Positions 694 to 64,000 of a stretch of 64,000 nucleotides of DNA are shown piece by piece. The position numbers and the translations under genes were made by a program. The notes under the pieces are model-generated. The model was not told the DNA's origin. It searched no databases and saw only the letters and a list, made by a program, of their open reading frames with translations. Position 1 is the first letter of the stretch; each line of letters starts with the position of its first letter. The DNA is from a virus (Duplodnaviria > Caudoviricetes), in the IMG/VR virus record IMGVR_UViG_3300022654_000689, one strand, 5' to 3'.

Positions 694-918
694 ATGAAAT
701 ATTGGAGAGTCCAGTTGAATAATCATACAATCGTAGATTATATTAGTTCATTAGATATTGAAGATTTAAAAAATCAAATTAAAGAAAAATTTGATATTAG
801 ATGTGATAATTTTATAGAATTCGAAAATTTTTGTCATTGTATTATAGATCAAACTAATTTATCACTATTTTTCACAGAAGTTTCAGAAAAAGAGTATGTA
901 GATCATGTATTAAATTAA
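694..918 (+). CDS. Hypothetical protein
   Basis: GGGAGG RBS before ATG 694; ends KEYVDHVLN. Confidence 0.6.
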   Translation: MKYWRVQLNNHTIVDYISSLDIEDLKNQIKEKFDIRCDNFIEFENFCHCIIDQTNLSLFFTEVSEKEYVDHVLN

Positions 919-932
919 ATGAAATTGGAGGT

Positions 933-2752
933 ATGTCTATGTATCAATTAGTAAACACAATGCTTATTAATAAGAATAAGAATAATCCATCTACAAAGAT
1001 AGTATTTGTTAGAAAAGATAAAGATGGTAATAAAACGTTTCAATATGTAGAAGACGTTAAATTAAAGTATTATTATAATAAACCAGAATATATGGACATA
1101 GGAATGGTAAACTTTATAGAACCTGAAAAGGTTAATGGTAGAATATGTAGATATGACGATTTATATAAAGATATGGCTAGTGTAATGAATGGTAAACTAA
1201 AAAATTTCTATATTGAAGCTGTTAATAGTGGTGAAGGTGTATTTAGTAAATTAAGACGAATGCATTTGGATTATGGTTTTCATGGAACTGATAAGAATAT
1301 AGTTGACAGTTATATAACTGCATTCTATAAAAAGCATAATCCTGATGAAAACTTATTTGGTATAACTAAGGCCTTCATGGATATAGAGGTTGATGGTAGT
1401 GTAATAGTAGGTTTCCCAGAACCAAGTTTAGCAGAGGCACCAGTCAATGTTATAACATTAGTTTGTGATAATGGACATGTATATACATTATGTCTTAAGT
1501 ATGATACAGAAACTTATGAAAATTGTATGTCCCGACAAGAAGAATTAATAAATGATTTAAAAGAAAGATATAAAGACACTAAATGGGATTTTAAATTTAA
1601 GATAGAAGAATTTGATGATGAATTAGATTTAATCAAAAGATTCTTTTATATTGTTAATGAAATTGAAAGACCTGATTTTATGGCAGCATGGAATGCAACA
1701 TTCGACTACCAATATCTATATAATCGTATAATAAGATTAGATGCCGATCCTGCAACTGTATGCTGTCCAGAAGATTTAGAATATAAAGGAGTTCATATTA
1801 AGATAGATACGAAGAATAGCGACCCTTGTGATAAATCTGACTTATTTGAATTTAACGGCTATAGCGTGTATGTTGATCAGCTTGCTATATATGCTAACCT
1901 ACGTAAATCAGCTAAAGAAGAATCATATGCATTGGATTATATAGGCGGTAAATTATTAGGAATTCATAAAGATAAAGTTGAAGGAGATATCAAAACATTC
2001 CATTTTGTAGATTATAGAAAGTTCCTATTCTACAATATACAAGATGCTATCATGTTATTACAGATAGAAGAAAAGAATAAAGACTTCGATCTATTCCAAA
2101 AAGTTGCATCATTAACAGAAACTAGAGTGACACATGCATTAAAGAAAACTGTGTGTTTAAGAAATCTAGCTGATAAATTCTATAGAGATAAAGGATTAAT
2201 AATTAGTAATAACCGTAGTAAACTTTATGTTAAAGACGAATCATCTAAGATACGTGGTGCGTTAAACTAACAGGCGCACGTTAAAGCTCTTTAATTGCTG
2301 GGAACTCCTATATGGACAATCAGCAGCCTTGAAAAAAGGTTCAACGACTATCGAAACCGTTAATAAGGGAGTAGAGTACCGAAAGGGAAACAAGAGCCGT
2401 CAGAAATGGCGATGATATAGTCTGATCTGTATAGCAATATACAGTTAACACATATGTTGTTGGGGATCCAAATCATACAGCATTTAATGGTATGGAGATA
2501 GCAGGTCGAGTTAGTAAGTTCTTATATGAATCAGTAATAGATTTCGACTTAAGTTCTCTATATCCTTCAATAATACTTGCATTTAATATATCACCTGAGA
2601 CATGTATTGGTAAAGTTAAGATAGATAGTGATATAGGTAATGCTGAACAATTATTAAATGATTTTGCTTCTGGCGATGTAATAAACTTTGGTAAGAAATG
2701 GATGAATTTACCAGGTATAGAAGATATTCTTAATGAGATTGATAATATATAA
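933..2752 (+). CDS. Family B DNA polymerase subunit (3'-5' exonuclease + motif A) of a split polymerase; exons 933..2262 and 2457..2752, about 541 aa
   Basis: Exo motifs MDIEV, AWNATFD, YNIQD; spliced IRGAFVGDP; DFDLSSLYPS motif A; no motif B/C. Confidence 0.9.
2263..2456 (+). mobile_element. Group I intron, ORF-less, 194 nt, in DNA polymerase
   Basis: P1 gtgcgt/gcgcac with U.G; P3 gctctt/aagagc; AATTGCTGG...AATCAGCAG; P7 GACTA/TAGTC; terminal G2456; removal restores frame. Confidence 0.92.
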
Positions 2753-10100: not shown

Positions 10101-13100
10101 CAGCATTTTGTATTCGCCCCGTTACACTATACCATTGGTCTTTATTACAGAAGAATTTCTTTTTACCTTCAGCTTGGTCAGAGAATGATACCTGTATCCA
10201 TTGAGGTGATGCTGTTTTAAAGTTTAATGTATATTCTCCGTCTGGTACGTTAGAACGTATAACTGCAGAATTTTGCCATGTTCCATATTCATAAACGCTA
10301 TCAAGATAAACAAAACGTTCACTTACCCAACGTTTCATATGTTCAAGTCTCGATCCGTTAGACATGTATATCCATGCACTATTTTCTTCATTAACATATT
10401 TTATACGTTGATCTTCGTTATAGAATGTTTCTCCTATCTTATTAATTATTTCACTTTCAAAGAATTCCATTATTTTTTCATAAGAGAATATTCCATTAGA
10501 ACGTAAGTACATATATCTTTCAGCTATTTCATTTCCGAACATTTCTTTCAATTTAACCCATAAGTTAGATTGAGATGTATTGAAATCATCGAATTGCATA
10601 TCTATACCTGGTCCATATCTTAACTGACCGTCATTTGTAAGACCCAACATTGAGTCACACAGTTATGTTAATCTAGATATCTCTATCTAGCTCAGACTAT
10701 CGCACATCCCATATAGGGATTTGTCTCGTTTAGTCGTTCAGCGTGATTTAAGTTCATTAATAAATTGAATGACTAATTTTTCAATATTATCTTTTTCCCA
10801 ATAAGGTATTCTAAGTAAAGTTATATCGTTGTCTTTGCAATATTTATTTTTAATTTCGTCTCGTTGTTGTGTTATCTTTAATTGTTCTTTAGCATATTCT
10901 TCACCTTTACCTGCAAAATCTACAGGTTTGAAGTGTTGTTCTCCATCATATTCTATTGCAGCGTTTAATGTTTCAAGAAATACATCAAATCTAAAGTAAT
11001 TATTATCATCTACTTTTACAAAATATTCTTGTTTATGCGGAATGTTTTGTTCTACCAACACATCTGATAAAATTTTATTATTTTTACTATGAACACAACC
11101 ACATGAATATGTATAACCACCGGAAACCATACTTCCCACGATATTTTTAATAGTTCCACAATCACATTTACATTCGTATACATTTTTTCCATGTTCATTT
11201 AAACCAATTTTCTTTAATATTGTTAGTTTTCCAAATTTCATTCCAGTTATATCTTTTTCATGTTTTTCTCTTAACATTAATTTACGTTTACAACCGCAAT
11301 TTGTGCTTTTACCTTCAAAAATGTTATATGCTCTTACATTACTTATAGTTCCACAATCACATTTACACATAAAGTGTGAATCGTCAACAACTTTCAAAAT
11401 AGTCCAGCTTTCTATATGTTTACCAACATAATCTGCTAGATTATATTTAATTTTTTCACAACCACAAGATTTAATTTTATTTTCTTTTAGCTTTTGAGCT
11501 GGAACACTAGTTGTATTTCCGCACTCGCATTTGCAAATCCAATAAACTGGACTGCTAGAACGTAATCCTTTTCGTCTTTCTTCTCGTAATATTTTATTTT
11601 TTTCTTCATCTTTACTTAGAACTAATAATTTTCCAAATTTCATTCCTTTTTCTATCTTCATTTCGTAACCCCCTAATCTATGATATAATATTGTTAGGGT
11701 TTATTTATTAATTTTTAAATCTTCGCCCCTGTTGTCCATAAAGGAGTTCCAAGTCAATTAGAGACAATTTTTCCATATAATATTTCTATTATAGGCGACC
11801 ATTGTGTTAATCGTAAAACGATGGATACCAAATTGTATTACCTTCGGCGTTCTTACCAAATGTAGTAAGAACCATATTCTTACCAAAGTTATCTACAAGC
11901 CCGAAGCAATATACTATAAGATAATAGTCGATTAAATGTGTTACTGAAAAGTGTTCTTTTAATTCACTTCTAAATTCTTCAAGTGTACTATTTTTAACCC
12001 AAGATACTAAGTCTTGTAACTCTGAATGGTAACCTGCTTTAAGAACAGTGACAGCGTTATCTCCAGCACCTATAGTTTCACATACAACACTTTCATCCCC
12101 TGCATAGTGGAAACGGCTTTCAAATTCATTACGTATACTTTCCCAAGAATCATCAGCAAATGCCCCTGCTCCAGTTACCGAGTTAACTGCAATTTCATAA
12201 GACACTGCATTTTTTTCTCCTGTAAGACCCATATTATTATATGCATAACGGTCTATATTGAACATGTATATACCCATAGATTTTCCGTTAATTATTAATC
12301 TTACCGGGAAACCATCTATAGCAGATCTAGTAAGTGGATTCTTAATTTGTTGTGGGTACGGTGTATTAACTTTATTAAAGAACCAGTTAACATATCTTGC
12401 TGCTCCAACGTTGTTTGCTTGTGAAGAGTCCATAAAATTGGCCTTAAGCGTATATCGACTTTCTGGTATCCAATCATCTTTTGGAGCGTATTCCCAATTG
12501 TTACCTCCGTCTCTTAGTTTTATAGTGTAGTTTTTAACTGGGTACTCTAGTGATGAAGTACCTTGCCATGATACTTGACAACCTTCTTTACGGAAACGTT
12601 TACTAGGATCTAATGGGTCATCATAGTCTAGAGTAAGATTTTTAGCAACTTCTCCTGACATACCTTCCATTACACCTTCAAATTTTAAAGTAGGTATTGT
12701 GGAATCTCCGTAGTTTAGTTCTCTTTTTGCTAGTTGTTCATCTCTATCTTTTATGTCGGCTATAACATTTTGTAGAATTTCTTCATCAGTTAATGCGCAA
12801 TCATATATACGGAAATTTTTAATAGCACATTGTGCATAATGAGGTATCGGTCTTCCTTGTTCGTCAAGATTATCCTCAATCTCATCAAATGAAGCACCTA
12901 ATATAATTTTACCATCAAATGAGAATGGTTCTGTAGATGACATATACGCTGCTTTAGTTATAACACCATTTACGTACTGAATCATTATATTCTGGTCTCT
13001 GTCTATGACCCACGTCATACGTGTCCAAGTATCATCTTGGAATTGGCATTCAGTTATTTTGGAGTTTCTACTACGTAAACTACCTACTTGAGTATCTATA

Positions 13101-23203: not shown

Positions 23204-24914
<1,711 letters not shown>

Positions 24915-46439: not shown

Positions 46440-48714
46440 CTATTTATTCATACCTAAGATCATTTTTAAAGTAGATTTACTAACTTTCTTCTTAGAATTT
46501 TCACCTTTGCGTGTCATCATTGAATTAGGTATAGGATTTAAATCTACGTATTCATTATCTTTGTTTTCTCTTTCAATTTGTTTATATTGAGATATCATGT
46601 GATGAGCTGCTCCGAAATTAGAGTTTTTAGATGTATATACATTTTTATTAATATTATTATATTTTCTTATACGGTTTGCATCTGTATTTTTATTAGTTTC
46701 ACTTCTAGAAGCAAATGCGTCATCTGAAGTTACTTTTACAAATCTATTAACATTTTCGCCATAGAATATAGCATGTAAACCTATTAGGTAGGACATGAGT
46801 TGGTCATCGTGGCATCCAGGTCTATGATCTATACGTTTATGGTCTCTAACTAGTGTTTTAATTTCATTGAATATATCTTCGCTAATTATCCAGTTTGGAG
46901 AGTTATTAACTACATCAAACAGAATGTCTTCAGTCATTATAGTTCTATTATCGTTATTAGTAGCTATACCGTAAACTCTAGATTCCTTTTTATAAGTCAT
47001 TTTACTTCCAAATCCCGATTTACGAGGATCGTCTATAGTTTTTTCAGCTTTCTTAGTTTTAACTTCATAATACACTTGTCTTGCAACTGAAGTTCTAAGA
47101 AGTAATGATATAAATGGAATACCTACAGAATTACGTTCTGGAACTATAACTGCATTAGGTAAATATTTACTTACGAACTCTTCAACTAATACAACTAAAT
47201 CAGGTATTTCTATGCTATTATGTCTAAATGTTATAACCGGCTTACATGTGAGTGGATCTATGACAGTGATTGCTGAGTAGTCAAGGGATACCCCTGTAGC
47301 TATATCTATTGCAACTACCCATGATTTATTATGAATGTTTTTAAGATCTGTTAATACATTGAATACATATTTACCGAATAATACTATTTGATCTTTAGGT
47401 TTTACTATATGCTTGGATATCTCTTCAAGTTGTTCTTCTGAGAAAGGAGAATCATTTGAAGCATACATCCATTGTATATCAAGCTCTCTTTTTATTTTAA
47501 ACAAATCTTGGTTAAGAGATTTACATTGATCTTCATACCATGCTTGATCTCTTCCTAATTCAGTATATGAGTATTGTACATGAACGAATTTATTGTTAGA
47601 TTCATATACTATACGCTTAACTTGTTCTATTGGCATATCATACCATTGTTCGTTAAATTTAACTGCATTATTTATCATTTTAAAGCAATATGCACCTGCT
47701 GGATCATCTAGTGTAGAAGGAGTAGTAGTTAATAATGTACCATATGGAACACCATTTACTTTTGCTCTTTCTGCAGCCTTTGCTTGGGCTGGCGCTGATG
47801 CTGTGAATATTATGTCATTATGCTTAAGGAAACTAAACTCGTCACTGTATTGTTATTCTTACAATTTCTTGTAAGCACAGACTATATCTTCACCATCTCT
47901 GGTGCTTCCCACTTCCACTTAGTTAAATAAGTGTACTCTAATCCCTTATTAACGGTTTCGATAGTCGTTGAACCTTCCTAATATTAAGCTTGGCTGCTGA
48001 TTGTCCCAGTGGGAGTTTCCAGCAATTCAAGAAGTTTTCATTTGCATATCACTATGCAACGGGACTCTATTGAATCCATATTAATGGAGTAGTTAATCCC
48101 CTTCCTGCTTTATCTGCAGATACAGGGTCATTAGCTGATTTCAGCAAGCTTATTGTATTTTGGTTTCTTTTACATCTTATATATTGTATATTGTCAGTAT
48201 CAGTCTTACTATCCATATGAGCTTTAAGATAACTTGGTAAGGCTTCTACTGTTTCTTTAAAACGTTTTAAGTTTAACTCACTATCTTGTACTGATTTATT
48301 ACCAAATATAATTTGTGAGTTTGATGTATTAAAATTATATACCCATGTATAAAAACAAATAGCTCCTATAGTCTTACCATGTTGTCTAGGGAGCAGTTCT
48401 ACTACGTTTATATTATTTAGCATACAAAAGTTTTGTGCTAAGTTTGCTATATGAAGTCCATATTTAGCAAATCCTCCTGGTTCTATAATATGAACTACTT
48501 CTCTTAGGTAGTACCAGAAATTTTTTTGCACTTCTGCTAATATTCTAAGTTTCATTTCATCTGAAAGATTAGGATCATACGGATCAACACCGGATAGTCC
48601 CGGATCATACAAAATTAAAAAAAACTTATTATTTTTTACTCCTTTATCTTTCAGCAATTTCCACATCTCAATGAAAGACTGATTAGATGTATTTACATCG
48701 TAGATGGGTTTCAT
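46440..48714 (-). CDS. terL: Terminase large subunit; exons 48714..48074 and 47844..46440, about 681 aa
   Basis: PRQHGKT Walker A, GRG, spliced LIWIDEF Walker B, LTTTP, AIDIATG..DYS, ERNSVG, HDDQLMS. Confidence 0.93.
47845..48073 (-). mobile_element. Group I intron, ORF-less, 229 nt, in Walker B of terminase
   Basis: P1 ggat/gtcc; AATTGCTGGAAACTCC...AATCAGCAG; AACGACTA...GATATAGTCT; terminal G47845. Confidence 0.92.
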
Positions 48715-50697: not shown

Positions 50698-51696
50698 TTA
50701 AAATTTGATATTTCTTAAGAAATTATCTAATTCTCTTTCCATAGTACTTTCTAATTTTACTTTTAATATATCTCCATTTTCTCTTAAATCAACAGTTTTA
50801 TTATATGGATCTATTACTGCATTTCTTGTAGACATTTTCATGTATTCAGACATTTCTTTTACATTATTTGATTGTTGAGTTATATATTTAGCAACTTCAT
50901 TAAATTTAACATCTAATATTGTAGATTCAGTTAATACTTGTTGTGCTGTCATATCTTTATATCCAGCTTGTTCTTTTAATATATTTGTCATATATGCATT
51001 ATTATGTGATGGAAATAATACCCACAGTTTTGTTAATCTAGACATCTCTGCCTAGCTCAGACTATCGCACATCCCATTTTAGGGATTCATCTCATTTAGT
51101 CGTTCAGCGTGGATTTTCATCCTTCGCCCTTGTCGTCCATAAAGGAGGTCCAAGTCAATTAGAGACAATTTTTCCATATAATATTTCTATTATAGGCGAC
51201 CATGGTGTTAATCGTAAGTTATAATGTATAATTTTCCATCTATTCTATCATATGCTCCTTCTTTTCTAGCAACTCCACCTAAACCTCTCATAGAGAATGC
51301 CATTTGCATACCTTGTCTACATAATCCCCTAAAATCATCTCCTGCGTGGGTTCTAGCCGATTCAACTACACCTTTAAGTAAATTCCCTTCAAAGTGCATT
51401 TCAGTTATTATATGAGATATTCTAGTTTGATCTATGTAAGTTTGTCTCTTAATATCTTCGCTTAGGGGATGTCCACATTCTCCAACAAGAGTTTTCATTT
51501 TAAGTTGTTCTTGTATTCTAGGTGCTTGTATTGCTCCTAATAAAGATGCTTTACTGTATATACGACCATTTCTATTTGGAGCTTCTGCTTCTTGTAATAT
51601 AGTTTCTATTATAGTAACTTCTGCAGTATCTCTTAATATTTTTGGTTTTGCAGTGAAAGCCGATTCAGATATTAATATACCATCAAATTTTTCCAT
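50698..51696 (-). CDS. Prohead protease (T4 gp21-like); exons 51696..51211 and 51024..50698, about 270 aa
   Basis: LQEAEAPNRNGRIY, GECGHP, SHII, FSMRGLG, spliced TYD|WVLFPSH. Confidence 0.92.
51025..51210 (-). mobile_element. Group I intron, ORF-less, 186 nt, in prohead protease
   Basis: P1 cgat/gtcg; AACGACTA...GATAGTCT; terminal G51025; near-identical to the core of 10660..11809. Confidence 0.92.
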
Positions 51697-63201: not shown

Positions 63202-64000
63202 CATAAATGTTTTAATATGATTCGCTACATCATATCACACTATATATTTCTATATAGATCAGACTATATCTTAACTATTTCTAGTTTGCCATATTTCCAT
63301 TCGCTTGAATGTACTCTACTCCCTTATTAACGGTTTCGATAGTCGTTGAACTACTTACTATTTTTTCTATATATGATTCAAGATTTTTAAAACAATCATG
63401 GTGAATTCTAAAAAGTTTTATATTATTAACTTCACAATATTCATTTTTCATTTTGTCATGTAATTTCAATCTCTCAAATGATTCGTCTGTATAATAAGAA
63501 TCTTTTTCAAAATGCTGCTTTCCATCATACTCTATTAAATATTTTAATGAGTCGTTTTCGTTTAATATTGCAAAGTCATATCTAAGCTTATAATTGCTAT
63601 TAACGGAACTTACTAAATTATCAAAAGTATATTCTCTTTGATACTTTATACACATATCCTCTAATTTTTTGGCTATTCGTGTCTCTGCGATACTATTATC
63701 TTTGCAATAAGGACACCTTCTTCCTCTCCTAAACATATTAGGTGTCACTAAATATGTGTTATTACATATTTTATGAGTTACTTCCATTTTTTCATCGATT
63801 CCAATATAATCTCCTAATATATAATCATTTAAATCTGAAAAATGTGATATTGTTTCCATATATTCTTCTTTAGTATTACGTTTTTTATCCCCTCGTATAT
63901 CATTAGCACATTTAGGGCATCTTTTACCATTTTTGAAATTATTATAAGTTACAGGATATTCAGTTCCACACTTATTGTGTTTTATATTAATATGTGTATC
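63202..64000 (-). mobile_element. Group I intron (5' part outside window) with endonuclease
   Basis: TTCAACGACTATCGAAACCGTTAATAAGGGAGTAGAGTAC...GATATAGTCT; terminal G63202. Confidence 0.85.
63281..64000 (-). CDS. Intron-encoded endonuclease (zinc ribbons plus Vsr/DUF559-like domain), 5'-truncated
   Basis: HxxC...RCPxC repeats; LRYDF...IEYDGKQHF...HD..KN. Confidence 0.8.
   Translation of the reverse strand, partial: DTHINIKHNKCGTEYPVTYNNFKNGKRCPKCANDIRGDKKRNTKEEYMETISHFSDLNDYILGDYIGIDEKMEVTHKICNNTYLVTPNMFRRGRRCPYCKDNSIAETRIAKKLEDMCIKYQREYTFDNLVSSVNSNYKLRYDFAILNENDSLKYLIEYDGKQHFEKDSYYTDESFERLKLHDKMKNEYCEVNNIKLFRIHHDCFKNLESYIEKIVSSSTTIETVNKGVEYIQANGNMAN

Follow-up and report, generated by a model that had tools for sequence, protein, structure and literature searches.

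An ORF-less group I intron of 186 nt, very probably spliced from the prohead protease transcript of an AR9/PBS1-like phage

The prohead protease gene of an AT-rich phage runs into a stop codon and resumes 186 nt further on. Is the spacer an intron, could it splice, and is its size exceptional? The gene lies on the minus strand of the window, which here means the whole 64,000-nt stretch of phage DNA that was analysed (genome approximately 25% GC). It encodes an S77 prohead (head-maturation) serine protease that is interrupted at ..ITYD|WVLFPSH... Exon 1 (51211..51696, minus strand) comprises 162 codons that contain the GECGHP and FSMRG motifs and end in ..KLYIITYD; it matches Pfam Peptidase_S77 at 1.7e-13, and its PHROG assignment is head maturation protease. 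Read from 51696 to 51211, the exon terminates in ..ACTTACGAT, and TAA (51210..51208) stops the frame immediately afterwards. Further downstream, a second ORF includes WVLFPSHNNAYMTNILKEQ... Exon 2 (50698..51024, minus strand; 108 codons plus stop) begins with TGGGTATTATTTCCA at 51024, and its product starts with WVLFPSHNNAY and aligns to the C-terminal half of the proteases of phages Goe21 and LPJP1. The closest protease homologues belong to the Bacillus jumbo phages Goe21, AR9 and PBS1 (52% identity), followed by Listeria LPJP1 and then by a clade of Staphylococcus jumbo phages. The public runs that contain this DNA are animal faecal and bovine gut metagenomes, and the phage is an AR9/PBS1-like jumbo phage from the animal gut. 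No second protease copy was found within the 64,000-nt window. By their likeness to the T4 gp21-type proteases, the two pieces probably encode an essential function.

The ends of the interruption are defined by homologues that lack it. The proteases of Goe21 (..VTWD-WVIFPSHSNAY..) and LPJP1 (..CCYD-WVVIPSHPNSY..) read through the D|W position without a gap, and the two pieces in the window abut at exactly this position; the intron is therefore 51210..51025 on the minus strand, exactly 186 nt. Its removal restores a continuous and conserved protease frame (..ITYD|WVLFPSHNNAY..) of 270 residues, which corresponds to the join 51696..51211 + 51024..50698 on the minus strand. A T on either side leaves the junction free to shift by one position (T|T), and the register gat|taa...ctg|tgg was chosen because it alone ends the intron in G with a U before the 5´ splice site. 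In this register, the intron runs from UAACACC to AAAACUG and finishes on G51025 (omega G), and the base ahead of its 5´ splice site is U. A previous interpretation of the same DNA, referred to here as the sequence-only reading, had proposed a 186-nt group I intron at 51025-51210. This placement proves exact on the minus strand, both by the D|W junction and by the match to a covariance model (R1, described below), and the wider spacing of splice sites that the earlier reading had allowed for is not observed. The intron is ORF-less. An ATG at 51045 (minus strand), within the 3´ strand of helix P9, opens a 115-codon ORF (MSRLTKL followed by WVLFPSH..) that gene callers would annotate separately; this ORF is a spurious artefact.

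The helices named by the sequence-only reading, which are P1 with its U.G pair, P2, P3, P4-P6, P7 GACTA/TAGTC, P8, P9 and the terminal G, are all present within the 186 nt on the minus strand. P1 (51197..51214) pairs the last exon bases CGAU (51214..51211) with the guide GUCG (51200..51197) and places the U51211.G51200 wobble at the splice site. The P1 loop UAACACCAUG contains CCA (51205..51203), which is able to pair with the 3´ exon UGG as P10. P2 (51174..51196, intron 15-37) is a hairpin with a GAAA tetraloop in the minimum-free-energy fold, and its position shows covariation among relatives. The 5´ strand of P3, UUGUCUC (51162..51168, intron 43-49), has its partner at 51093..51087, where the 3´ strand GAGAUGA (intron 118-124) forms the pseudoknot with P7. 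The P4/P5 region (51129..51154, intron 57-82) is composed of P4 (CUUG/CAAG) around J4/5, P5 (UCC/GGA plus a C-G pair) and J5/4. P6 (51107..51127, intron 84-104) consists of GCG/CGC, an AA/A internal loop and GGAU/AUCC, with a GAAA loop at its end. The 5´ strand of P7, A[C]GACUA (51097..51103, intron 108-114), carries a bulged C that is followed by G51101, and its 3´ strand UAGUCU (51059..51064, intron 147-152) was located by a pattern search. This P7...P7´ pattern occurs twice in the window, compared with 0.00 expected occurrences in shuffles. The G51101-C51060 pair of P7 is presumed to be the guanosine-binding pair, by analogy with G264-C311 of the Tetrahymena intron. P8 (51071..51086, intron 125-140) is the hairpin AUCCC/GGGAU, and P9 (51038..51055, intron 156-173) is the hairpin CUAGGCA/UGUCUAG, which is capped by a GAGA (GNRA) tetraloop. 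The 3´ tail AUUAACAAAACUG (51025..51037) combines UUAACA, a motif conserved across the family, with the terminal G (51025, intron 186).

The order of P4-P6, P8 and P9 is canonical for group I, and the window sequence aligns to all these helices. Nothing is inserted between the 3´ strand of P3 and P8, so that P7.1/P7.2 is absent, in agreement with the earlier description. The minimum-free-energy fold has a z-score of -3.0, and the GC content of the intron region is 40-47%, compared with the genome background of approximately 25%. The outer pairings are weak in places: P1 is limited to 4-5 bp and P10 to 3 bp, and P2 is nearly all A-U.

The fold is supported by relatives from other phages, with covariation behind every helix. 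The covariance model R1 was built from an alignment (A3) of 17 unique IMG/VR relatives from which the window sequence was excluded, and it matches 51216..51019 end to end (101.8 bits, E 1.5e-30, model positions 1-212 of 212); the ends of this match coincide with the protein-derived intron plus the 6-nt flanks of the model. Other family members score 50-258 bits with R1. RNAalifold recovers P1-P6, P8 and P9 from the relatives alone (A3). With P7 added, 98.3% of cells are paired among the 17 relatives and 20 pairs are doubly changed, whereas only 35-51% of cells are paired when the partners are slid. In a realignment of 80 family members (A4), pairing reaches 95.3% of cells and double changes are seen in 44 of 51 pairs, including 7/7 pairs of P3 (96% of its cells paired) and all five covarying pairs of P8; A4 was fitted to the R1 structure, which inflates the pairing counts of every helix but P7. 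The P7 figures alone are free of this fitting bias because P7 was not part of R1: 98.7% of its cells are paired in the 80 members, three of its pairs are doubly changed, and the G-C pair is invariant in 79/79.

General-purpose models respond weakly to the locus. Rfam yielded no match over the whole window at the gathering threshold (50 bits), and on a 1.1-kb stretch with E up to 10 it returned chance matches only. On a 226-nt slice, Rfam RF00028 (Intron_gpI) aligns over the full model at 24.4 bits (E 1.7e-4), below the 50-bit threshold. The same threshold misses six loci that contain at least eight relatives; its sensitivity for the family is limited, and the sub-threshold score therefore weighs little against membership. 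The gathering threshold thus overlooks an abundant phage intron family.

A second intron in the same window offers a close comparison. This sibling (10660..11809, minus strand; 1150 nt) interrupts an unrelated gene at the same target, TTACGAT|TG, and shares with the 186-nt intron both the guide GUCG and the exon heptamer TTACGAT. Within its P6 loop lies a 307-codon ORF (11661..10738, minus strand) that is taken as an endonuclease and has a weak DUF2726 match. The two cores are identical at 173 of 185 aligned positions (93.5%). Helices hold eight of the 12 differences, and in each of these eight a pair is either retained or gained. From the sibling to the 186-nt copy, G.U becomes G-C and U.G becomes U-A in P3, U-A becomes U.G in P4, A/A becomes C-G in P5, and a compensatory change in P9 replaces G.U and C-G with A-U and U-A. 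A ninth difference, at intron position 7, is C in the 186-nt copy and A in the sibling, and P10 follows the respective 3´ exon, being UGG/CCA in the former and UGUG/CACA in the latter. The preservation of pairing across these differences points to selection on the ribozyme RNA. The 186-nt copy resembles a sibling whose ORF cassette has been swapped for a GAAA-capped stem, and the two-copy pattern would fit a spread through the short internal guide (reverse splicing) or through relaxed homing.

These observations lead to the proposal that an ORF-less 186-nt group I intron is, very probably, spliced from the prohead protease pre-mRNA of this AR9/PBS1-like phage. The earlier reading had argued that the intron must splice, which is a reasonable position since the window's single protease copy becomes continuous solely after the intron is removed. 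In the proposed pathway, the guide GUCG would pair with the last exon bases CGAU to form P1 with its U.G wobble, and an external guanosine, bound at the P7 G-C pair, would attack after U51211. The terminal G51025 would then take the same P7 site, and the freed exon 1 would attack after G51025, a step that the short P10 (UGG/CCA) may aid. Ligation of the exons would yield ..TAC GAT|TGG GTA.. and a single 270-residue protease (..ITYD-WVLFPSH..). The intron appears to be small because only its periphery is trimmed, with the core left complete. Two savings could account for the size: P2 and P9 end in GNRA tetraloops (GAAA and GAGA), where relatives carry loops of 12-16 nt, and a GAAA-capped stem closes P6 where the sibling holds an endonuclease cassette of approximately 960 nt.

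RNA data bear on the site of insertion. Contigs of four RNA or possible-RNA libraries contained no splice joint on the window sequence, but most of the intron (approximately 51094..51167) is uncovered in all four, which makes this negative result uninformative. Two RNA-library contigs from different bovine-gut or metagenome studies (runs X22 and X24) read through the junction without a break, ..ACT TAT GAC|TGG GTA TTA TTC CCA TCT.., and derive from a very close relative. Their junction differs from the window (TAT GAC|TGG..TTC CCA TCT compared with TAC GAT|TGG..TTT CCA TCA) by changes that are all synonymous and clustered within approximately 30 nt of the insertion site (51211-51214 and 50992-51024). 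This junction was not accepted as spliced RNA; C replaces U at position -1, and the junction is therefore more likely an intron-less allele. It confirms the D|W site and fits the P1 model, in that the intron-bearing allele has the guide-complementary ACGAU. A contig from a further run (X20, record 1) joins 47 nt of the exon 2 start and 27 nt of the intron 3´ end (50978-51051) to ..PNLSDEMKL.., which matches a terminase-like ORF at 48067..48714; it represents an assembly chimera or else a relative with a rearrangement.

Given an intron, unaided self-splicing is somewhat more likely than not. A real intron that is too reduced to splice alone is the less probable case, though a serious one; it would need a trans-acting helper, for which the candidates are a phage or host RNA chaperone or maturase (e.g., the endonuclease of the sibling) or the ribosomes that translate exon 1. 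With P1 and P10 so short and P2 dominated by A-U pairs, efficient folding might require help, and the minimal periphery, the intron ORFs and the many introns in the same genome point in the same direction. Some T4 introns require translation or helper proteins in vivo, which also speaks for a helper. However, every core helix and junction of the 186-nt intron is intact, and its GNRA tetraloops at L2 and L9 occupy the clamp positions of the self-splicing 205-nt Azoarcus intron. The sibling ORF, for its part, matches DUF2726 only weakly and shows no known maturase fold.

Two further readings dispense with RNA removal. The gene could encode two associating polypeptides, one ending at the TAA at 51210 and the other starting from the ATG at 51045, with a decayed intron as the spacer. 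The stop codon directly after exon 1 and the 115-codon ORF that starts within the spacer would suit this arrangement, and the automatic annotation of related phages (PBS1) lists such pieces as separate genes. The ATG, however, is part of the 3´ strand of P9, lacks a convincing Shine-Dalgarno sequence and is AUA in the sibling, and the break would cut the conserved motif YD-WVxxPSH in two. No decay is visible in the core, and the differences from the sibling keep the RNA pairing, which argues for selection on a ribozyme; two separate polypeptides are accordingly very improbable. Even more remote is the reading in which the ribosome bypasses the spacer by hopping, as in T4 gene 60. The sequence GAU UAA does occur twice, at the boundary of exon 1 with the spacer (51213..51208) and again close to the spacer's 3´ end (51037..51032), but a ribosome that landed at the second GAU would meet UAA immediately, and the hop of approximately 180 nt is far beyond the 50 nt that are bypassed in gene 60. 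Moreover, this repeat is the UAACA motif conserved across the family, which is present in introns of unrelated genes. Splicing of a group I intron remains the preferred reading.

The sequence-only reading had called this intron ultra-compact, with the Azoarcus intron as the yardstick. It is indeed the shorter of the two, by 19 nt (186 nt compared with 205 nt; PMC13168695). The likeness between them is architectural only: both are compact, lack P7.1/P7.2 and an ORF, and have GNRA loops on P2 and P9 (L2/L9) without extra domains. The Azoarcus intron, a GC-rich and thermostable RNA inserted in the anticodon loop of a bacterial tRNA, has an established structure and self-splicing activity (PMC13168695). 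In contrast, the window intron lies in a phage protein-coding gene, has approximately 40% GC and is known from sequence alone; its protein-coding host gene separates it from the Azoarcus-type IC3 tRNA class with its anticodon-loop insertion.

An exceptional size was an overstatement. GenBank lists the homologous protease CDS of the Staphylococcus phage Madawaska (MW349129.1) as a three-part join. The homologue in phage SA1 is uninterrupted, and alignment to it gives two Madawaska introns, one of 155 nt and one of 184 nt. The evidence that the earlier reading had named as counting against its claim, a record of natural introns no longer than 186 nt, is thus largely in place. The 155-nt intron (800..954 of the MW349129.1 extract) lies at ..GGTGAGT|...TTTG|CAGGT, and its removal restores E-S-G-H-P; it has a 6-bp P1, lacks P2 and almost lacks P8, whereas the window intron keeps every canonical helix. 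The 184-nt intron (1221..1404 of the extract) occupies the identical site, TTACGAT|TGGGTA, with the guide GUCG. Both Madawaska introns resemble the window intron in being ORF-less and in lying in a homologous gene of the AR9-like clade, and the 184-nt intron also shares the YD|WV site; their cores, however, belong to another sequence family. RF00028 gives 37 bits for the 155-nt intron and 35.1 bits for the 184-nt intron, both below threshold, and R1 gives 17 and 19 bits, respectively, compared with 101.8 for the window intron. An unrelated core with the same guide at YD|WV indicates that this site is a recurrent target. The prohead scaffold/protease is listed among the intron-disrupted genes of these Staphylococcus phages and AR9 in a study that leaves out the class, size and structure of the introns (Korn et al., bioRxiv 10.1101/2020.12.14.422802).

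Small group I introns are also frequent in another lineage of gut jumbo phages. The 'Jug' phages contain 2513 group I introns with an average of approximately 206 nt, where the lengths are those of covariance-model matches, and the splicing of 37/76 is supported by metatranscriptome reads (Sci Adv 2026, PMC12880540). Like the window phage, they are jumbo phages from gut metagenomes, and their small introns lie in essential genes (terL, nrdD, DNA polymerase); they differ in lineage, in their Bacteroides/Phocaeicola hosts and in their genomes of 360-402 kb (PMC12880540). The literature search retrieved no paper that states the shortest catalogued group I intron, and a 2025 intron database paper gives no minimum. 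A length of 186 nt is not exceptional because small phage group I introns are common and published, with shorter ones in the same gene.

The intron is accordingly a further, neatly delimited example of the known small phage group I introns. It leaves the lower size limit of the class where it was and forms one point in a size series with smaller members in related Staphylococcus phages. The introns of these AR9-like Staphylococcus phages, which reach down to 155 nt and in some cases apparently lack P2 or P8, are more informative on the minimal size of the ribozyme. The value of the window intron for ribozyme research lies in its clear ends and complete core, since a full-length sibling and dozens of relatives reveal which periphery is dispensable; for annotation, the protease should be treated as one spliced gene. 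That it could be the smallest natural group I intron to combine all helices (P1-P10), Azoarcus-like L2/L9 clamps and protein-free self-splicing is doubtful. If this held, the intron would provide a new AT-rich, mesophilic minimal model ribozyme with the 1150-nt sibling as a natural control in the same genome, and the shared TTACGAT|TG together with the retuned P10 would document a guide-only spread to a new gene, as in reverse splicing.

The family to which the intron belongs is widespread in metagenomic phages. The core motif GAACGACTAANTGAGA is found in more than 119 IMG/VR contigs, and a pattern composed of the 3´ strand of P7, P9 and the UUAACA tail is found in 34. The architecture of the window intron, down to the UAACAC at its 5´ start and its tail AGAUUAACA..G, is matched by 21 members. 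Most of these interrupt a gene at ..MLDNL|KLGYGGT.. and have lengths of 197-212 nt, and exon joining at the equivalent sites gives open frames in the 21 close relatives. Many metagenomic phage contigs in IMG/VR (L131, L132, L136, L140 and others) carry relatives that split a gene at ..YQGFAKQNYTMLDNL|KLGYGGTKSEMERLL... Members of the R1 family share with the window intron the core blocks UCUCUGAUUGACUUGG, UGAACGACUAAGUGAGA and GCGAUAGUCUGA, the UUAACA tail, the same helices and the UAACAC start, and they differ from it by larger L2/L9 loops or by extra P9.1/P9.2 hairpins. Those with fixable ends measure 195-272 nt, and the window intron, at 186 nt, is the shortest among approximately 50 unique R1-family members sampled. 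Apparent lengths below this value were discarded. End-to-end R1 spans of 177-190 nt were rejected as intron lengths, since the true 3´ ends lie 40-90 nt further, past P9.1/P9.2, and short calls of 153-179 nt from a heuristic based on ORF continuity and P1 pairing were judged false by inspection.

Among 50,697 phage records, a blastn search with the gene and the intron found one related intron core only, in MW202674.1. There, a relative (1197-2712) splits a P22-like coat gene, which GenBank presents as two CDS and an intron-internal 'hypothetical protein'. The window itself is intron-rich. Weaker R1 matches (18-32 bits) lie at 2241-2461 and 24508-24738 on the plus strand and at 47840-48092 and 63225-63286 on the minus strand, and they are apparently additional group I introns from a second sequence family. 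The match at 47840-48092 overlaps the start of the terminase-like ORF.
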